Notes under the pieces: generated by a model
What the model was told of the DNA's origin: nothing
Databases searched by the model: none
The model's input: the letters and a program-made list of their open reading frames with translations, nothing else
Origin: a virus
Lineage: Duplodnaviria > Heunggongvirae > Uroviricota > Caudoviricetes
Reading direction: 5' to 3' (one strand)
Virus record (IMG/VR): IMGVR_UViG_2695420746_000009
Location: 1 to 13,740 of that record
DNA length: 13,740 nucleotides
Shown here: positions 1 through 13,740 of the stretch, one piece after another
How positions within the stretch are numbered: the first letter of the stretch is position 1
Layout of the letters: every line of letters starts with the position of its first letter
Program-made: the position numbers and the translations under genes

Positions 1-84
1 ATCACGGTAATGATTAACAGCCCATGACAGGCAGACGATGATGCAGATAATCAGAGCGGAGATAATCGCGGTTAACCTGCTCAT
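1..84 (-). CDS. Rz: i-spanin Rz, N-terminal 28 codons only (gene runs off the window start)
   Basis: Reverse strand from 84 reads [28 protein letters not shown], near-identical to my recollection of the lambda Rz N-terminus (single TM anchor). Its ATG overlaps the endolysin stop (ATGA). Confidence 0.85.
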
Positions 85-581
85 TGCTGCCCCCACAAAC
101 AGACTTCACGCTCAATATCACGACGGGTCATCAGCCCTTTCCATTGCTTACCGCCAGCGTATGTCCAGCGACGTAGCTGGTCACATGCGCCTTTGATATA
201 GCCCTGGTTTATTTTGCGAAGAAGCGTCGATGTTCTGAAATTGCCAGCACCCACGTTGTAGACGAACGAGTAAAGAGCGCCGCGCGTTGTTTCCGGTATA
301 TCGACTTTGATGTACGGGTTAATTTGTCTGGCGACCGTGGCAAGGTCTTTATTCAGGAGGGCTTTGCATTCTGCTTCGGTATACGTTTTACCTAGCATGA
401 TGTCTTTTCCAGTGTGTCCGTAACATACAGTCCATACGCCAACAATATCTTTGTATGGTATGTAACTGACACCTTCCAGACCATCGTTACCACTTGGGCC
501 AGTGATGAGCATAGACGCTATGGCAATAGCCCCGCCACCAATAGCAGCTGTGACAGCTTTGCGTAATGATGACTGCATCAT
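81..581 (-). CDS. SAR endolysin (phage lysozyme, GH24, P21 R-like)
   Basis: 166 aa. N-terminal Gly/Ala-rich weakly hydrophobic segment [20 protein letters not shown] typical of a signal-anchor-release domain, followed by a T4-lysozyme-like catalytic region ([24 protein letters not shown]). Near-identical to my recollection of P21 R. Tandem ATG ATG start overlaps the holin stop. Confidence 0.9.
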
Positions 582-850
582 ATTTCCTTCGGTGCTCTCT
601 TCCCCAGCTCTCCAATAACCATCGCTGTAGCAGAAAGATTATTGGTATTAGTTTTATCCAATATGTCCTGCAATATCTTCGTGCGCTTCATCTGCTCGCG
701 TTTATTGAGCCGGTATGTAAGCACACCGAGGATAATGCTGAACGCGACACCGATAATGAAGCCCCAATCCTGCAATGACAGGCTGGCAAAGAACGCAGCA
801 AGACCAGCGCTACCATAAGATGCACTGCTGTATCGTTCATCCATCTTCAT
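578..850 (-). CDS. class II holin / pinholin with dual-start motif (holin and antiholin)
   Basis: 90 aa with two hydrophobic segments ([11 protein letters not shown] and [18 protein letters not shown]) and a charged C-terminus. Starts Met-Lys-Met (ATG AAG ATG), the classic dual-start arrangement. SD GAGGT lies 7 nt upstream. Sits immediately upstream of, and overlapping, the SAR endolysin. Confidence 0.75.
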
Positions 851-945
851 ATCTCTTACCTCGCAATAGTTGCTGAGGTTTCGGCTTGGAAACTATATGG
901 CGAAAATAACCCCTACCAAAAACGGCAGGGGAATATATTCTCCAG

Positions 946-2022
946 TTACTCAAATAACTTTTTCACTTCATCAACTGTCTGAAGATAACGTTCGCTCTCA
1001 ATCTCAATACCTATTGCCTGACGTCCTAACTTCAGCGCAGCTTTAATAGTTGAGCCTGATCCCATAAAGAAATCGGCAACGATATCTCCGGGGCGTGAAC
1101 TACTCTTTATAATATGTTCCATCATCGCTGCAGGTTTTTCACATGGGTGCTTGCCAGGATAATATTGCACAGGAGGAAACTCCCATACATCGGTATAAGG
1201 TACATCAGCAGTAACATGAAATGGACGGCGTAAATTTTCATACTGAGTCTTCAAATCATCATACTGCTTCTTTACTTCCTCATAATGCAATTTCAGATCG
1301 CTATAACGCTTTTCATGTTCTGAATAATCAACATTAAAAGGATATGGACACGGGACACCGAGTGAATCTGCCTTCCTGCGAAATAATTCGCATAGTTTAT
1401 TAAAATCAATTAATGATGGAAGCCGCCACTGCGAATAAGAAAACCAGTGTGAACACATCTGCTTTCCTGTCGCTGAATTAATGTCTGCGGCTGATATATC
1501 TAACTGACGGCGAGCCAGCGAAAAAGCATCAATTAGTGGAGAAAATATATTTTTTCTTAAATCTGCACATTTTGAAGCATAACCTGACTGACCTTTAGCA
1601 TAACCTGACGCGCCGTAATGCTCTGCAAATAATATTCTTTCAGTAGCAGGAAAATAAGCCCTTAAACTTTCTTTATGACAACCGCGCCACATACCACTGG
1701 GTTTAGCCCAAATGATATGGTTCAGAACATTGAAACGGTCGCGAGTTAATAATTCAATTTTTGACGCAAGGCGAGAGCCGGTAAACATATACAGGCTGCC
1801 ATTAGGGGCCAATATCCGCCAAAATTCTGCCAAAAATTCGTCAATCCACCCCAAAAAGTCAGCATCGCTATCCCACTGGTTATCCCATGCGTTAGCCTTT
1901 ACGCCGAAGTATGGTGGGTCTGTTGCAATCAAATTGACCGAGTTATCAGGGATGGTTTTGATAAATTGCAGAGAATCTGCGCAAACGAGTTGTGCGCCAT
2001 GAATATTAGTGGTTTTGAACAT
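946..2022 (-). CDS. DNA N6-adenine methyltransferase, beta class (orphan, phage late-region moron)
   Basis: Motif IV DPPY near the N-terminus (LIATDPPYFG) and motif I FxGxG near the C-terminus (DFFMGSGST), i.e. the beta-class order. A coiled-coil-like insert (KRYSDLKLHYEEVKKQYDDLKTQYENLRR) lies in the presumed target-recognition region. Start chosen at the ATG giving MFKTTNIHG; the ORF track extends to 2067. Neither start has a clear SD. Confidence 0.85.
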   Translation of the reverse strand: MFKTTNIHGAQLVCADSLQFIKTIPDNSVNLIATDPPYFGVKANAWDNQWDSDADFLGWIDEFLAEFWRILAPNGSLYMFTGSRLASKIELLTRDRFNVLNHIIWAKPSGMWRGCHKESLRAYFPATERILFAEHYGASGYAKGQSGYASKCADLRKNIFSPLIDAFSLARRQLDISAADINSATGKQMCSHWFSYSQWRLPSLIDFNKLCELFRRKADSLGVPCPYPFNVDYSEHEKRYSDLKLHYEEVKKQYDDLKTQYENLRRPFHVTADVPYTDVWEFPPVQYYPGKHPCEKPAAMMEHIIKSSSRPGDIVADFFMGSGSTIKAALKLGRQAIGIEIESERYLQTVDEVKKLFE

Positions 2023-2157
2023 AGCTATTATTTTTTTGCCTGGGTAAGCTAACCCAGCGATGCGCATCGCGGGTGGGCTTTAGGTTCAGCCTATAGCTCT
2101 GGCATGGGTTGACCGCAGGACAAGCTGCAACTTGTCCTGCGCCCACTTTTCAGGCAC

Positions 2158-2179
2158 AAAAAAACCGCCATAAAGGCGG
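2158..2179 (-). terminator. Intrinsic terminator for leftward transcription (GC hairpin plus U7)
   Basis: Plus strand CCGCC-ATAAA-GGCGG (2165-2179) preceded by a run of 7 A (2158-2164). On the minus strand this is a 5-bp all-GC stem followed by UUUUUUU. Confidence 0.6.
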
Positions 2180-2218
2180 CTTGTTGGCTATTGGGTACAA
2201 AAAACCCAACTTAACAAA

Positions 2219-2247
2219 ACAATAACTAAAAACCGTCATTTTGCCAA
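2219..2247 (-). promoter_or_regulatory. Candidate sigma70 promoter firing leftward into the terminator and late genes (pR'-like by position)
   Basis: Minus-strand TTGGCA (rc of 2242-2247), 17-nt spacer, TATTGT (rc of 2219-2224). The terminator lies about 30-55 nt downstream. No other promoter-like sequence is visible before the methyltransferase start. Confidence 0.35.
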
Positions 2248-2915: not shown

Positions 2916-3227
2916 ATGTTTAACGTGATAACCCACCCTGCAGCACTGGATGAACTGCTTGAACTACCAGACGATCTGCGAGGTCGCATGACCAGGCTAA
3001 TTGAACGACTGGAGAAAGAGGGAAACAAACTTAAGATGCCCCATAGCCGTGTAATAGGCGGAGGACTCTTTGAACTAAGAGTAGGGGATAAAAACATCGC
3101 AAGAACGCTATACGCCTACGCGACTGGTAACGAAATTTATCTATTGCATGCATTTGTAAAAAAGACACAGAAAACACCAGTAAAGGCTATAGAAATCGCC
3201 AGAACTCGCCTGAAGGAGATGAACTGA
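2916..3227 (+). CDS. Type II toxin, RelE/ParE superfamily, HigB/Gp49-like (addiction module killer protein)
   Basis: 103 aa from the ATG with SD AGGAGG 7 nt upstream. Family-typical motifs LFELR, LLHAF and KKTQKTP. Stop overlaps the start of the downstream HTH gene by 1 nt. The ORF-track start at 2871 is over-extended. Confidence 0.8.
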   Translation: MFNVITHPAALDELLELPDDLRGRMTRLIERLEKEGNKLKMPHSRVIGGGLFELRVGDKNIARTLYAYATGNEIYLLHAFVKKTQKTPVKAIEIARTRLKEMN

Positions 3228-3514
3228 TGAAAGCAAAAGGCATCCCGTTTAACGAAGTAAAGGAAAAACTACTCAACACTCCAGAAGCTATCAAAGGATA
3301 TGAAGAGGCCGATAAAGAACTGGAGATGGTCGAAATGTTATACGAAATGAGGGAAAGAGCAGGTTTAACGAAGTCAGCTCTGGCAGAACGAATGGGATTG
3401 CGCCCGTCCGCCATCAGCCGCCTGGAAAGCAATCCTTTAGGGGCAAGCATGAAAACTTTATCAAAATATGCCCAAGCATGTGGCGCAACAATTAATATTA
3501 ATGCCGTCTATTGA
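3227..3514 (+). CDS. HTH (XRE-family) antitoxin, HigA-like antidote protein
   Basis: 95 aa. Classic HTH LTKSALAERMGLRPSAISRLE. Translationally coupled to the upstream toxin in toxin-first (HigBA-type) order. Confidence 0.8.
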   Translation: MKAKGIPFNEVKEKLLNTPEAIKGYEEADKELEMVEMLYEMRERAGLTKSALAERMGLRPSAISRLESNPLGASMKTLSKYAQACGATININAVY

Positions 3515-6362: not shown

Positions 6363-6566
6363 CTATACCCAAATTTTCTGTTGATATGTTCTGGATGGTT
6401 TTGGCGTTCTTTCTGATTCAGGTAAATGAACATAAACGCAATATCCATCACCTAAAAAATCAGAACGAACAACCAGAACTTTCTTACCACGCCGCCGATA
6501 AGTATCTGAAAGACGCTCTGCTTCATCATGCGTCATCGGCCCCTGCTTAAATGGCGTTATTTTCAT
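6363..6566 (-). CDS. Hypothetical small basic protein
   Basis: 67 aa from the ATG (MKITPFKQ...). The 18-bp palindrome lies 6 nt upstream of the start; no clear SD. The ORF-track start at 6590 is a GTG inside the palindrome. Confidence 0.5.
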   Translation of the reverse strand: MKITPFKQGPMTHDEAERLSDTYRRRGKKVLVVRSDFLGDGYCVYVHLPESERTPKPSRTYQQKIWV

Positions 6567-6867
6567 TTTCTTGTGCGACCGCGGTCGCACCCTCGCTGAT
6601 TTCCAAGTAACGCTTAATCCAAAGATTTTCTATATGCTTATTACCTGGCTGATTTGATAAATACCAATCGGCAATTACAGACTGCTTATTACTATCTGGT
6701 CGTGTCCTGTAACCACAAGTTGGACACCAGATAACATATTCATTTCTTACCCCCGAATACCTTAATTCTGGCTTCGACGGTTTCCTGAACATAACTTGTT
6801 TACAAAGGCAGAATGGCACTTCCTGCCCGATGGCGTTTGATGATTTCACTGCGCTTCTCCGCCGCAT
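6547..6867 (-). CDS. Hypothetical protein with Cys pairs (CxC ... CPxCG), possible zinc ribbon
   Basis: 106 aa as given in the ORF track; start uncertain (no SD at either candidate ATG, and it overlaps the upstream gene by 68 nt if full length). Cys pattern CLC ... CPTCG. Confidence 0.4.
   Translation of the reverse strand: MRRRSAVKSSNAIGQEVPFCLCKQVMFRKPSKPELRYSGVRNEYVIWCPTCGYRTRPDSNKQSVIADWYLSNQPGNKHIENLWIKRYLEISEGATAVAQENENNAI
6573..6590. repeat. Perfect 18-bp palindrome GTGCGACCGCGGTCGCAC; copy 2 of TGCGACC-NN-GGTCGCA motif
   Basis: Read directly. Lies within the 3' end of ORF 6547-6867 (encoding ATAVAQ) and immediately upstream of the start of the 6363-6566 gene. Confidence 0.5.
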
Positions 6868-7510
6868 TTAATAATGCGGTTCGATTTAAGCTCAGACATC
6901 GCGACTTAATTAAAAGCCAGCGTTCTTTATAATCTTGTCTCCAGCTATCAATAGATATATTCAGTAGAAAACTCAGATGCCTGTCCTGTTCTCTCTCATC
7001 AACTGCCTCAGCACACGTAAGTTCTGATTTAACCTGCTGTGCCGCGTAATAAATCAATTTCCGCATGGCTTTTTTCGTGGAGGCCTTCATTTTTTTAAAG
7101 CCGCCCCCAGAATGAGCAACCAGAAAATCAAGCCATAACCACTGACAAACAATCACATCATTGTTGTAGTCAGGCTTGCATCCGTAGCAATAATAAAGCC
7201 AGGCTGATTCCTCGTTATTCAACTGACCAATAGCCCTGCGCCAGCTGGCGCTCTGAAAATCAATATCAGTGAGCAACATTGATGATTGTTTAAATGTTTT
7301 CCCTTGGTGGAATCTAACCGACTCAGCGGGAACGGACACTTCGTATGAGTTATCATCCCCCACACTGATTGACCGGACTGGTTTATTGTTAAACCGTCCT
7401 GATCTACCGAGACGCATCTGCTCAAGCTGGACCTCCAGAATGCCACGCTGGCGATAATGAACATCAGCCAATGCCGTAGAGACGCAGCTGCGTATATACT
7501 CAAGCTCCAC
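6800..7510 (-). CDS. Hypothetical protein; positional candidate for a late-gene antiterminator (Q-like), unverified
   Basis: 236 aa. GTG start with SD AGGAGA at 9-nt spacing, overlapping the cro-like stop by 11 nt. First gene after the cro-like gene. I cannot confirm Q-family membership by eye. Confidence 0.55.
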   Translation of the reverse strand: MELEYIRSCVSTALADVHYRQRGILEVQLEQMRLGRSGRFNNKPVRSISVGDDNSYEVSVPAESVRFHQGKTFKQSSMLLTDIDFQSASWRRAIGQLNNEESAWLYYCYGCKPDYNNDVIVCQWLWLDFLVAHSGGGFKKMKASTKKAMRKLIYYAAQQVKSELTCAEAVDEREQDRHLSFLLNISIDSWRQDYKERWLLIKSRCLSLNRTALLNAAEKRSEIIKRHRAGSAILPL

Positions 7511-8654: not shown

Positions 8655-11600
8655 ATGACATTAAACGATTTCTATGCGGATCGCTTTGGCAGCGATCCGT
8701 TCTCGCTAATTGAAGCAGCACGGGATGAACTAACCGAGCTGGCACAGATGGCTGGTATCAACTGGCCTGCCTGTTCCGACAACATCCAACTCAACCCTCG
8801 CGGGGGAGTTGAGCGTTACTCTTCATACAATAAAACATCTCCAGAAGCTCTCGAAAAGAGCCTGAAAGGACGCGTAGAAATTTACTCCCGGCTGGAACAC
8901 AGCAAAGGGATTGATTACCCGTTCATTAACTTCGTCCATAAAGGCAGCGATGCTGGCTCATGGAGCGGTTTCTCCTTCCTGTTTTCTGAATATCGCCGTG
9001 AGCAACAACGGAATAATGCGACCGTGGTCGCACAACCGGAAGAAGAACGGGAAAGAATAGAACGTCAGGCCGAAGCACGTCGTCGCCGTGAAGAACAAAA
9101 ACGAATTAATGACCTGAAAAACAACCAAATGGACCATGAACGTTTGCTGGGATGGCTGGCATTCCACAGCGCGTGGGAACATGCTCCGGCTGAAGACGGC
9201 TCATGGCCATATGCGATTAAAAAAGGTATTCGTGACGTTTTTAGTTCATGTGATGTGCGTCGCGTGACCAGTCACGACAGTGCGAAATGGAGCCGGGGGC
9301 CAACCACATATATGGCTATCCCTCTGGCTCACCTGGACGGTCGTTACGATGGTCGTATTGTGGGTTGGCAGCGAATCGACAAACAAGGTGGGAAATACCA
9401 GACCAGCGCAGTAACCAGCGGCGATTTCGTCGGTGCCTGCTTTGTTATCGGTGAGCTGAAAGGGGCGCAAAACATCGCTGTTACAGAAGGTTTTGCTACT
9501 GGTGCATCCATCTGGCTTGCCACGAAAAAAGATAAACGCTTTGACGCTGTGGTTGTCGCTGTATCCGCTAACAACATGGTTCATGTTGTGGAACAACTGG
9601 TAAACATGTACCCAGCGGCAAAAATCACCTGCGCACTGGATAATGACCGGAAATCTGCCACAGAAGGAAAAGGGAATACCGGCCTGCGGACTGGCTATGA
9701 AATCTTATCGAAATTCAACGATGTCCGCTGCGTCTATCCAACTTTTGAAGACGATCCGCAAATGGAGTGCAGTGACTTCAACGACCTGCACAAACTACGT
9801 GGACTTCGTGAAACCGCACGTCAACTATTTACAACAGCAAACCGCCTGAAAACCGGTACTGATTTGCTATCTCTGACGCTCAACCGCCTGAAGACAATTA
9901 AGCGGGATAACCGTCGTACTTTTGCCAAAGAGCTGCTGAGAGCGGTGGATATTGGCATGCTAACCTGTCCAGTTCCTAACAGTCCGTCAGATTTATTTAA
10001 CATGTTCTGCATCGTTCTGCGTGAAATGGGACTGGAAAATATCTATCGCGCTACGGTAAAAGACCACATTGCCCGTCGCCTGAATAAAAAGTGCCGTATT
10101 GCCCAGGCTCCGCGCTCTTTCAGCGAACGCATAACTGATCCCAATAAACGCCCTCAACATATCACCTATAAGCGTTTTGAAACTTCGGTAATGACCGATG
10201 ATGTCCTGAAGTACGTGCAATCACTACAAGGGATAGTCATCGTCCGTGCTGGTATGGGTTCCGGCAAATCTACAGGATTGTTACGACCATTAATGCATAG
10301 CTCAGAACGTGGTATCTCTGTTGCTCACCGTGTCTCCCTTATTGGTGGCCTGTGGGAAATGATGACAGAAGGAAAAGGTGTAAAAGCCGATATCCTGCAC
10401 TATCAGGACCCTGGCTATCAGGAAATGGCTCCATACGCCAGTAAACTGACCATCTGCATAAACTCGATTGTCAAAAACTGCTGGCAACCGTTGATGCGCC
10501 AGCACGACTATTTTGGCTTTGACGAGGCCACACAAGGGCTACGTGCCGTTCTTTCCGGTCGGGCTATGGAAAACCCGGTGGCTGTATTCAATACGCTAAT
10601 TGACGCGCTGGCCAGAACGGAACAACACCCAATCATGGTGGATGCTGATGCGAACGATCTGCTGGTTGACCTAGCTGAACTGGCTATGAAACGCCGTGAA
10701 GAACTAGGTTTACCGGCATGGCTGCAGATCCACGTAATTGAATTACCTGTTGATGTTCGCAACCGCGAAACAGGTGAGCCAATCCGGGTTTTTTATACAG
10801 AAAAAGATCGCATCATGACCGAGGTGGTGAAAGCTGTATCGGATGGCGAAAAAATCATGTTGGCCACCGACAGCTCCACCTTTGCAGAAGATGTGACAGC
10901 CACCCTGAGAATGCATTTTCCTGGTAAGAAATTTCTGTGTGTAAACCAGAAAAACAAACCAGAGCCAGAAGTTGAAGCATTTACCAATCAACCGAAAAAG
11001 ATGGTCAAAAAATACGACGGCCTGATTTATAGCCCGTCTATTTCATCCGGCGTGTCGATTGAGCAAAAACATTTTGACCGTCATTTCGGCATGTTCTGTG
11101 GTGAAGTTGTACCCAGCGACGCAGTGCAAATGCTACGCCGCGACCGTACAGCAAAAGAATTTATTATCGGCTTTGATAAAGCTCGTGCAAAACGTGAAAC
11201 TGACCCGCAAAAAATAGAACGAGCATTCGCCCAGGCATTGCTTGCTACCGCAGGTATGAACGGTGAACTGACGGATGTTGTTTTCGATGGCGACCGTATA
11301 TCAATGGGGGTGGCCAATACCGACTTTACCAGGATGAAAATTAAAGCAGCCGCAATTGAAGCGACTGCGCGTAACGACTACGCCAGCAACATGATCTGCA
11401 TCATGCACAGCGACGGTTATAAGGTATCGCCGCTGGCCACCGATTATGCTGCGAATGATATCGGTAAAGATCTGCGTAAAGAAGCGCGGGATATTGTGTG
11501 GGAACAGACACTGGATCTGCACCTCAATACAGAAACTCCACAAGAATCAGAGCGTGAAGAACTGCTAAAAAAACGCGCGCTGACGCTTGAAGAACAGGCA

Positions 11601-12698
11601 AAACTTGTCCGCTGGGATATTGAAAACGAACTGAAACTACCGGTTGAAGAAGGCACGCTGAAATTCTATTTCGATGGTGCTCGAGACAAAGTTCGCCGCT
11701 ATGAAACAATGCTTTTAGATGAGGTAACAGCTCGTCGTTACGACCGGGAAGAAGCAGCCATCAATTTTACCTACGCATACCGTCAGGCGGGACAGTGGCA
11801 ATATTTTGTAGTGACCGCGATGACTCGCGAGCAGGCTGATGATGTCTTTAAAACTAAATTCCCTGGAATAATCGATCACAAGGTAAAAGCTACTCCTACT
11901 GTTGAAGTCGGGGCGCGCGGTTTCTATGCGCTTAAATCAGCAACTCTCCGGCAGTACTTTATCGACTGCGGTATCAACCCTGAGACTATGACCGGCGAGG
12001 CGACTCAGGAGCGTCTCAAATTTGCTCGAGATAACCTCATGACAGCCGAACGCCGTGACCTGTTGAATAACGTTCTGCACATTGGTGGTTTTATGACGCC
12101 AAAAGGGAAGCCTAAAGTGCCGGAAGCGTTGTTTAAAAACATTTGCGACTCTCTTGGCCTTAAAACAGGTAAACGTCGCGGCAGAGACGGCGATAAGCGT
12201 CCAACCTTGCGTTTTGTTGAGCCTGAATCAGCGGCATTTATGCTGGATATTCTTGCTCAGCGTCAGAAAGATGGCCTAACCCTGAAAACGCGTAAAGCCG
12301 AGAAGACCGCCATCGAAATGGATCGCGATTTGGATCTCAATATATATATGGATGATAAAACGCGATCCACAAACGAGCAGGTTCAAAACGCCCCTCATTC
12401 AGTAATTTCTGAGGCTTTGGCTGTGTTGCCAGTGGTTGTACCTGAGTCCTGGGCGATGAGTGCGCTTTCCGGTGAGGAGCTGGCCACTATGTCATCATGG
12501 TCATCAGCCAGCATAGCTATGACGTTTGCATCTCTGTACCTCACAGAGTTCATGGATCACTTATCCAGCAATGAACTGCGGCGGTTACGTGAATACATTA
12601 CCGGGAATAGCTGGATTTGCCCCTATATTTCCAGACATCTGTTATCACTTAACCCATTACAAGCCCGCTGCCGCAGATATTCCCGTGGCGAGCGATAA
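8655..12698 (+). CDS. Large multidomain replication initiator (primase-helicase, N15 RepA-like); 3' end disrupted by IS2
   Basis: 1347 codons as an ORF. Toprim-like motifs ([12 protein letters not shown] and CALDNDR) around aa 280-330, Walker A GMGSGKST around aa 535, Walker B-like FGFDEAT, then a roughly 700-aa C-terminal region. Native sequence ends at 12611 (1319 codons); codons 1320-1347 are read from the IS2 terminal inverted repeat. Weak SD. Confidence 0.8.
9017..9034. repeat. Palindrome TGCGACC-GT-GGTCGCA; copy 3 of the motif, inside the repA-like coding sequence
   Basis: Read directly. Encodes ATVVAQ in a charged linker ([21 protein letters not shown]), in the same codon phase as copy 2 (ATAVAQ). 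Confidence 0.5.
12320..12368. other. Candidate origin-like element inside the 3' part of the repA-like gene
   Basis: 8-bp inverted repeats GGATCGCG / CGCGATCC flank ATTTGGATCTCAATATATATATGGATGATAAAA, which includes an (AT)5 run and three GATC sites within 49 bp. Confidence 0.3.
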
Positions 12699-13528
12699 CC
12701 CAGCGCACTATGCGGATGCCATTCGTTATAATGCTCGAACGCCTCTGCAAGGTTCTTTGCTGCCGTTAACCCGTCTGGTTTGGGCATGATACTGATGTAG
12801 TCACGCTTTATCGTTTTCACGAAGCTCTCTGCTATTCCGTTACTCTCCGGACTCCGCACCGCCGTGTTCTTCGGTTCAAGTCCCAACATCCGGGCGAACT
12901 GGCGTGTTTCATTAGCCCGGTAGCATGAACCATTATCCGTCAGCCACTCCACTGGAGACGACGGAAGATCGTTGCCGAAGCGGCGTTCCACCGCTCCCAG
13001 CATGACGTCCTGTACTGTTTCACTGTTGAAGCCGCCGGTAGTCACCGCCCAGTGCAGTGCCTCACGATCACAGCAGTCCAGCGCGAACGTGACACGCAGT
13101 CTCTCTCCGTTATCACAGCAGAACTCGAACCCGTCAGAGCACCATCGCTGATTGCTTTCTTTCACGGCCACTCTGCCTGTATGTGCCCGTTTCGATGGCG
13201 GTACAGCAGGTTTTCGCTCAAGCAACAGCGCATTCTGGCGCATGATCCGGTAAACACGTTTGGCATTGATCGCAGGCATACCATCAAGTTCTGCCTGTCT
13301 GCGAAGCAGCGCCCATACCCGACGATAACCATACGTGGGCAGCTCTCCGATAACATGGTGTATACGGAGAAGCACATCCGTATCATCAGTGTGACGACTG
13401 CGGCGGCCATCCATCCAGTCATCGGTTCGTCTGAGAATGACGTGCAACTGCGCACGCGACACCCGGAGACAACGGCTGACTAAGCTTACTCCCCATCCCC
13501 GGGCAATAAGGGCGCGTGCGCTATCCAC
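12623..13528 (-). CDS. insD: IS2 transposase OrfB (InsD), normally expressed as an OrfAB fusion by -1 frameshift
   Basis: 301 aa beginning [23 protein letters not shown] and ending SDNRCLEI, matching IS2 InsD from memory. DDE-type integrase core. Confidence 0.9.
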
Positions 13529-13740
13529 TTTTTTGCCCGTCCATATTCAACGGCTTCTTTGAGGAGTTCATTTTCCATCGTTTTCTTGCCGAGCAGGCGC
13601 TGGAGTTCTTTAATCTGCTTCATGGCGGCAGCAAGTTCAGAGGCAGGAACAACCTGTTCTCCGGCGGCGACAGCAGTAAGACTTCCTTCCTGGTATTGCT
13701 TACGCCAGAGAAATAACTGGCTGGCTGCTACACCATGTTG
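13486..13740 (-). CDS. insC: IS2 OrfA (InsC), C-terminal part (5' end beyond the window)
   Basis: Reverse strand reads ...[20 protein letters not shown] ... [24 protein letters not shown], then a stop. Overlaps the insD start region, which contains the slippery AAAAAAG. Confidence 0.85.

Follow-up and report, generated by a model that had tools for sequence, protein, structure and literature searches.

The locus examined here raises a simple question of purpose: why does a temperate phage carry a DNA methyltransferase gene directly ahead of its lysis genes? The window, that is, the whole stretch of 13,740 nucleotides that was analysed, holds such a gene on its minus strand. The answer which we consider quite probable is that it encodes an orphan β-class N6-adenine methyltransferase, produced late under the control of Q, which would place m6A marks on progeny DNA with almost no sequence specificity and thereby shield it from restriction.

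Megablast places the window among the N15-like telomere phages, which are linear plasmid-prophage elements. Over 92% of its length it matches Escherichia phage PhiR46_1, in which the telL/telR ends and a protelomerase are annotated, at 96% identity; it is 95% identical to YDC107_1 and about 76% identical to N15. Of the 5,426 complete E. coli genomes in RefSeq, 16 carry the element, and most of the records with it have a length near 46 kb (range 36-75 kb). The gene order of the window is read from right to left on the minus strand:

Right end of the window: the C-terminal end of RepA, interrupted by IS2
After RepA, plus strand: the CB repressor
After the CB repressor: Cro, then Q
6800..7510, minus strand: Q-type late antiterminator (PF06323, E=1e-82)
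After Q: small early genes grouped in a block, with a 3'-5' exonuclease among them
After the early block, plus strand: a RelE/HTH toxin-antitoxin pair
Between the toxin-antitoxin pair and the methyltransferase region: gp50-like and gp51-like genes
Past the methyltransferase region, at the left end of the window: holin, endolysin and the beginning of Rz

The N15 counterpart of this Q, gene 40, is annotated as a late transcription activator.

The identity of the methyltransferase itself is established by its domain match and by two motifs:

946..2022, minus strand: methyltransferase coding sequence, 358 amino acids, stop codon included; an intact open reading frame, ortholog of N15 gene 52 and member of the M.EcoGII family
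1909..1920, minus strand: catalytic motif IV, D-P-P-Y, residues 35-38, invariant in an alignment of 30 sequences
1054..1068, minus strand: SAM-binding motif I, F-M-G-S-G, residues 319-323, with F319, G321, S322 and G323 invariant

The Pfam family PF01555 (N6_N4_Mtase) matches residues 29-347 with an E-value of 4e-47 and 161.4 bits against a cut-off of 26.7. Since DPPY precedes FxGxG, the enzyme belongs to the β class. The DPPY catalytic motif is typical of adenine enzymes. Membership of the α class of Dam (GATC) is not found, as PF01555 is the sole Pfam family reported and the order of the motifs is reversed relative to the Dam type. The gene is under strong purifying selection because the comparison with N15 gives a pN/pS ratio of 0.13 (pN=0.11, pS=0.83; synonymous sites are saturated). 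A longer open reading frame starting from an ATG at 2067 (373 amino acids) was rejected, as a relative (L015) has a stop codon inside the 15-codon extension and as M.EcoGII and other homologues align from the methionine at 2022. With the extension unconserved and the homologues starting at that methionine, the gene boundaries of the sequence-only reading (946-2022) are correct.

No nuclease or restriction-enzyme domain is detected by Pfam and PADLOC in the other open reading frames of the window. The identification as an orphan N6-adenine methyltransferase, first made from the letters alone, is thus borne out by PF01555, by DPPY ahead of FMGSG and by this absence. A cognate restriction gene in the full element had been named as an observation that would refute this; the annotation of the 96%-identical PhiR46_1, whose complete genome measures 46 kb, contains no restriction enzyme, and the inspected portions of the N15 and phiKO2 records contain none either. 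The gene is not seen to be part of a Type II restriction-modification system. The exclusion of a partner is strong but not absolute, since two of the scanned unannotated open reading frames of PhiR46_1 (286 and 149 amino acids) have no Pfam match.

The fold of the protein was predicted with AlphaFold2 from 30 homologues (mean pLDDT 81). In the model, residues 1-134 and about 276-358 form a Rossmann-type domain, a helical domain spans residues 148-221 and a long helix extends over residues 233-263. Two features lie between the halves of the catalytic domain:

1360..1581, minus strand: target-recognition domain made of four helices, residues 148-221, with a helix-turn-helix among them (AlphaFold2)
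1222..1326, minus strand: coiled-coil-like linker helix built of five heptads, residues 233-267, with a tyrosine opening each heptad

The four helices of the recognition domain comprise residues 148-174, 178-185, 190-194 and 204-221. A Foldseek search against the PDB shows that the model resembles the β-class enzymes CcrM, MboIIA, BceJIV and RsrI (E-values of 1e-15 to 1e-12) and returns N4-cytosine enzymes as well; with phmmer, RsrI is matched among PDB sequences at 2e-22. The linker joins the helical recognition domain to the catalytic domain's C-terminal half. Its heptads read YSEHEKR/YSDLKLH/YEEVKKQ/YDDLKTQ/YENLRRP, with tyrosines at positions 233, 240, 247, 254 and 261 and mostly leucine or valine at the fourth heptad position, and residues 233-263 are modelled as a single helix with a pLDDT of about 90.

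This layout is a familiar one. M.EcoGII consists of a four-helix recognition domain with a helix-turn-helix, followed by a long, flexible, charged and partly helical linker, and the model helices 148-221 together with the long helix 233-263 fit the published architecture (PMC11551740). Absent from M.PflMI, the nearest site-specific relative, the linker is proposed to help the enzyme bind nucleic acids non-specifically (PMC11551740). The heptad segment is therefore a hallmark of the clade, a linker of the M.EcoGII type and not an oddity. The sequence-only reading had described it as an unusual coiled-coil-like insert of the target-recognition region: the segment is real, with its five tyrosine heptads at residues 233-267, but it lies outside that region and is not unusual for the clade. 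Its length varies by exact units, with exactly seven residues, one heptad, missing from M.EcoGII and some homologues. The published rationale for non-specific binding rests on a positive surface, and the window linker has no net positive charge (8 lysines and arginines vs 9 aspartates and glutamates).

The relationship to M.EcoGII can be quantified with the reference sequence in Table S1 of PMC11551740. Identity is 55.7% over the full length (residues 1-357), and it rises to 69%, 64% and 61% for the reconstructed ancestors Anc250, Anc242 and SUPREM (Anc284), respectively. The methyltransferase of phage 1720a-02, named in the M.EcoGII paper as a very similar, close relative, is 56.6% identical to the window protein. 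Between M.PflMI and M.EcoGII, the identity is only 27% (PMC11551740). Judged by sequence, the window protein is thus well inside the M.EcoGII clade, given 55.7% identity to M.EcoGII and 61-69% to the ancestors vs the 27% of M.PflMI.

M.EcoGII and M.EcoGI were described from prophages of E. coli O104:H4 as non-specific adenine methyltransferases (PMC5778455). M.EcoGII, which is commercially available, can convert as much as 99% of dA irrespective of context, and its product resists many restriction enzymes. It is silent in the lysogen, while constitutive expression is deleterious and slows or destabilises cells. A review in EcoSal Plus lists it as a protective modifying enzyme which is expressed on induction of temperate phages (PMC12707154). 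Methylation of both DNA and RNA is reported for each of the five ancestors that were purified, with activity on DNA differing little among them (PMC11551740); this DNA result is a bulk activity, and direct non-specificity at the DNA level has been demonstrated for M.EcoGII alone. Furthermore, 44% of residues differ between the window protein and M.EcoGII, which counts against simply assuming non-specificity. The relationship matters for any expression assay: the appearance of a new m6A motif had been proposed as the test of activity, but since the nearest characterised relative is non-specific, a missing motif would not mean an inactive enzyme, and total m6dA would be the informative quantity. 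A search of the literature for methylome data on N15-like phages or PhiR46_1 found none.

The gene is embedded in a compact arrangement of transcription signals and lysis genes:

2219..2247, minus strand: putative late promoter TTGGCA-17-TATTGT (promoter scan)
2155..2182, minus strand: strong intrinsic terminator that directly follows the late promoter and corresponds to lambda tR', with a stem from 2182 to 2162 followed by seven U (terminator scan)
910..931, minus strand: second intrinsic terminator, in the gap between methyltransferase and holin (terminator scan)
578..850, minus strand: holin-like gene, 90 amino acids; Pfam holin matches are weak and below cut-off, and the gene is a holin in the PhiR46_1 annotation
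81..581, minus strand: endolysin, a GH24 phage lysozyme (PF00959, E=1e-45)

The end of the holin-like gene overlaps the start of the endolysin gene. These signals recur in the relatives. The GenBank records of N15 and phiKO2 annotate a -35/-10 pair at the homologous site (a 'putative late promoter' in phiKO2), the first terminator is annotated in both and also found in Yersinia phage vB_YenS-P840 (P840), and at the second position a terminator is annotated or predicted in N15, phiKO2, P840 and cdtI. Indeed, the depositors of N15 and phiKO2 had already recorded the succession of signals, terminator, gene 52 methylase, terminator and gene 53 onward, and P840 repeats it. In a wider sample, a holin or lysozyme is recognisable downstream on the same strand in 41 of 80 homologous viral loci, and many have Q homologues upstream. 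Phage cdtI runs Q ... methyltransferase, S, R, Rz.

From a terminator that separates promoter and gene, the presence of Q and a further terminator ahead of the holin, we infer an arrangement like lambda pR'-tR', in which the methyltransferase and the lysis genes would be transcribed late and depend on Q. Late co-expression with the lysis genes, as the sequence-only reading had it, is supported by this layout, by the presence of Q and by the synteny with N15 and phiKO2, and it stays a prediction from the sequence and from the annotation of relatives. Silence in the lysogen is likewise consistent with the layout, in which a terminator lies ahead of the methyltransferase and its start codon lacks a Shine-Dalgarno sequence at the usual spacing.

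A further element occupies the space between the first terminator and the start codon:

2020..2149, minus strand: structured and conserved leader at the 5' end of the methyltransferase mRNA, about 130 nt (covariance model R1, 33 bits, E=5e-5)

Over the 138 nt between terminator and ATG, the window and N15 are 92% identical, vs 73% over the coding sequence with its saturated synonymous sites. The model R1 was built from leaders of lambdoid phages only, and R1-matching leaders span telomere phages as well as lambdoid phages. In about 50 of 79 sources, N15 included, the full-length match ends exactly at the methyltransferase ATG, always on the coding strand. In the window, helix 2 of the leader falls at about 2114-2141. 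Pairing was evaluated in an alignment of 46 distinct sequences, which was fitted to the model's own structure, a caveat on the following statistics: 95% of cells pair vs 79% in shuffles, compensatory changes occur at 17 of 27 pairs, 177 cells are doubly changed vs 51±5 in shuffles, and pairing falls to 27-42% when the pairing partners are slid.

Several other identities of the leader were considered. Rfam holds no family for it, and an E-value search yields sub-threshold chance matches only. A tRNA was rejected with a negative ARAGORN result, and so were small open reading frames (GTG at 2146, a 'hypothetical protein' in PhiR46_1), as one related locus (L014) has an in-frame TAA; no conserved open reading frame was found across the leader. 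A pattern scan of genome contigs gave three chance matches only, in unrelated bacteria. No Shine-Dalgarno sequence is located at a normal distance from the methyltransferase ATG.

The strand on which the leader folds deserves a separate comment. The main hairpin of the telomere clade has 12 non-Watson-Crick cells; apart from one terminal G-G, each of them is A.C on the mRNA strand. Moreover, the opposite strand of this hairpin folds better in 12 of 13 variants, and N15 scores there as a plus-strand terminator. Across the family, the ratio of G.U to A.C on the mRNA strand is 59:23 (40:2 in helix 1), and a structure on the mRNA strand is for this reason favoured. The same G.U excess disfavours reading the leader as an antisense RNA or antisense terminator, which is left as a minor possibility.

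The leader is the sole element of this locus that appears undescribed. A role in controlling the dosage of a toxic enzyme is plausible. A more ambitious, composite proposal is that the leader represents a family of structured RNAs in 5' UTRs that has so far gone undescribed, possibly a cis-regulatory dose switch, and that the enzyme of the N15 clade is non-specific with an extended tyrosine-heptad linker; we put this forward tentatively and rate its chances somewhat below even. Should such a switch exist, translational gating, sensing of SAM or SAH and autoregulation by the enzyme are its candidate modes of action.

The following course of events would account for these features. A transcript begun at the late promoter in the lysogen would end at the terminator 40-60 nt further on, and no enzyme would be made. 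On induction, Q would render RNA polymerase resistant to terminators, so that it would pass both of them, transcribing the structured leader and the methyltransferase gene that lie in between, and continue into holin and endolysin. Shortly before packaging, the enzyme would then methylate adenines of phage DNA under replication, with a weak sequence preference or none. The progeny would arrive in the next host with genomes already protected against those many Type I, II and III enzymes which are blocked by adenine methylation. An anti-restriction function, proposed at the outset from the position of the gene, is supported as probable by the sequence, by synteny and by homology to the characterised M.EcoGII.

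Genetic and biochemical results from the literature put bounds on this scheme. In P840, an insertion in the orthologous gene (record position 42,479, gene 42,402-43,475) leaves lysis and lysogeny intact (PMC10612081), which implies that the gene is dispensable on a permissive host. A plasmid with 80% m6dA transforms non-restricting E. coli four to five orders of magnitude worse than a dam-methylated control. Because of this very poor transformation, the phage can probably not afford saturating methylation, and the level reached in vivo may be low. There is thus a tension between anti-restriction marking and the poor transformation by M.EcoGII-modified DNA, and it bears on how much self-methylation a phage tolerates; the leader may be the device which sets the tolerated level.

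Late, nearly non-specific marking of progeny has to be weighed against three other explanations. The enzyme could, as the sequence-only reading implies, be an orphan adenine methyltransferase specific for one motif, which would protect against one or a few systems or serve regulation in the manner of Dam or CcrM. Most β-class enzymes are of this kind, including every structural match of the model, and M.PflMI has the same fold of the recognition domain; the divergence from M.EcoGII at 44% of positions and a longer linker without net positive charge point the same way. However, M.PflMI combines its 27% identity to M.EcoGII with the lack of a helical linker, whereas the window protein stands at 56% with the linker present. 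Moreover, Anc250 (69%) and Anc242 (64%), which bracket it, show M.EcoGII-like activity on generic 3.6-kb DNA in addition to their activity on RNA. A rare recognition site is hard to reconcile with such activity on a generic 3.6-kb substrate, and we regard specificity for a single motif as unlikely. The structural matches and the family bear on a different chemistry too: PF01555 spans N4-cytosine and N6-adenine enzymes, and Foldseek returns the former along with the latter. Against an N4-cytosine methyltransferase stand the DPPY motif and the closest characterised homologue, which makes m6A. The two PhiR46_1 open reading frames without a Pfam match would leave room for a restriction-modification system in which this gene is the modification half and the nuclease is encoded at another place of the element, but no nuclease domain is found in the window, no restriction enzyme appears in the PhiR46_1 annotation, and a methylase made only late could not shield the lysogen from a cognate nuclease. 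Taken together, a cytosine enzyme or a modification half is very improbable.

Another explanation keeps the adenine chemistry and moves the target. The main role could lie in phage physiology, with methylation of RNA or DNA tuning late expression, replication or packaging, or disrupting the host during lysis. M.EcoGII and the ancestors do methylate RNA, and single-stranded DNA is a substrate too; the poor transformation by heavily methylated DNA argues against wholesale marking of the genome, and the conserved structured leader before the gene suggests fine control of dosage. Yet the P840 insertion mutant is normal in lysis and lysogenisation, so that no essential physiological role is apparent, and PMC12707154 counts M.EcoGII among the protective enzymes expressed on induction. 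A predominantly physiological role accordingly receives a low probability, below that of motif specificity and above that of a cytosine enzyme or a modification half. Late anti-restriction marking of progeny DNA with little or no sequence preference remains the preferred reading.

In its family context, the methyltransferase is ordinary: it is the already annotated gene 52, a member of a known family. The window protein is 83% identical to N15 gp52, 62% to phiKO2 Gp52 and 59% to both PY54 ORF60 and P840 ORF62. The N15 record lists a gp52 of 284 amino acids without DPPY, while the full 377-codon open reading frame with DPPY is present in N15; the notion of a truncated and inactive N15 methylase was rejected, the 284-residue annotation being a miscall of the start codon. 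N15 gp52, misannotated in GenBank, is hereby tied to the non-specific M.EcoGII clade. When 5.8 billion proteins are searched, homologues with a length near 350 amino acids are recovered by the thousand from Enterobacterales and Vibrio, mostly on contigs of 35-60 kb. Full-length relatives occur in 93 annotated phage records, among them all telomere phages, and many relatives in lambdoid or Stx phages are 55-57% identical to the window protein. Gene 52-type methyltransferases are found in N15, phiKO2, PY54, P840 and Klebsiella N15-like phages, and in lambdoid relatives the gene lies between Q and S. In the telomere phages, the methyltransferase is a conserved gene that opens the late/lysis transcription unit and not a sporadic moron; of the moron position between late terminator and holin suggested by the sequence-only reading, the location stands and the moron does not.

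How does the locus compare with known systems? N15, phiKO2, PY54 and P840 share its synteny, which runs from a gp51-like gene over late promoter, terminator, leader, methyltransferase and second terminator to the lysis genes. The window differs from N15 in that its lysis cassette is another mosaic module, with an endolysin 95% identical to that of cdtI and only about 35% identical to N15 gp54. Lambdoid phages with M.EcoGII relatives, such as cdtI, carry the gene between Q and holin and precede it by a leader of the same structured family. M.EcoGII itself resembles the window protein in its β class, domain order, helical recognition domain with heptad linker and prophage location. In contrast, the window protein has an extra heptad and two to three further linker residues (358 vs 349 amino acids), its linker is not net basic, and its host element is a linear plasmid-prophage whereas that of M.EcoGII is an integrated lambdoid prophage. 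Anc250 and Anc242 share the longer linker (...QYDDLKAQYENLRRPF...), and both were purified and found active on DNA and RNA (PMC11551740); unlike the window protein, they are inferred sequences and not natural proteins, and their activity is reported as bulk DNA activity.

Lastly, the phage Mu Mom function offers a parallel in strategy. The Mom modification is a carbamoylmethyl group on adenine N6, and both the protein and its chemistry are unrelated to the window methyltransferase. The likeness lies in the regulation and the presumed purpose, as Mom and other late protective modifiers are silent in the lysogen, toxic if mis-expressed and deployed late for the protection of progeny (PMC12707154).

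The methyltransferase gene (946-2022, minus strand) is preceded by a conserved RNA element:

2020-2149, minus strand: structured 5′ leader of about 130 nt, directly 5′ of the methyltransferase ATG

This leader is kept in approximately 50 of the 79 phage loci carrying this methyltransferase family, in telomere and lambdoid phages alike. Its covariation is strong, with compensatory changes at 17 of 27 pairs; 95% of the cells in the leader alignment pair vs 79% in shuffles, figures which derive from an alignment that was itself fitted to the structure of the covariance model. Rfam contains no family for the leader. The gene itself is mis-started in the N15 reference record (L001, NC_001901; 2979-4112, minus strand), where the ortholog, gene 52, is given as 284 aa from an internal Met, a start which excludes the catalytic DPPY motif. 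The full N15 gene 52 ORF is intact and comprises 377 codons mechanically, or about 362 when counted from the conserved Met.

Homology with N15 stops at the methyltransferase stop codon (window 850-946; columns ~1355-1480 of the alignment with N15), and the terminator and lysis cassette lying 3′ of the gene form a mosaic module which differs from that of N15. The endolysin of this module shares 95% identity with that of the lambdoid phage cdtI, whereas identity to N15 gp54 is only about 35%. Exchange of the lysis module is thus independent of that of the promoter-leader-methyltransferase block.

A palindrome, GTGCGACC(A/G)(T/C)GGTCGCAC, occurs three times in the window, while none is expected by chance:

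2267-2284: palindrome copy just upstream of the putative late promoter, which it abuts
6573-6590: palindrome copy
9016-9033: palindrome copy

Since the site equivalent to the first copy is annotated in the telomere phage phiKO2 as a ‘putative plasmid partitioning site’, the three palindromes are probably dispersed centromere (SopB-binding) sites.

The 3′ end of repA, the primase-helicase gene, is the insertion point of a mobile element:

12611-13740: IS2 copy, 99.8% identity to known IS2

Homology with relatives ends at 12612, and RepA has lost approximately its 12 last codons, which are replaced by 28 IS-derived codons. All 16 related E. coli plasmids lack the repA-IS2 junction.

Two further loci lie in the window:

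6547-6867, minus strand: 106-aa ORF just downstream of the antiterminator gene Q
2916-3514, plus strand: Gp49/RelE-type toxin (PF05973) and HTH antitoxin pair

The match of the 106-aa ORF to PF14354, the Lar restriction-alleviation family, is weak and stays below threshold (21 bits, cut-off 28.6; E=3.5e-4). If real, this match would endow the phage with a second, early anti-restriction function. The toxin-antitoxin pair lies on the opposite strand, with the early genes on one side of it and the late promoter on the other. In N15, genes 49/48 constitute the same kind of pair in the same arrangement, and in the Yersinia telomere phage P840 the corresponding place is occupied by a HicA/HicB pair.
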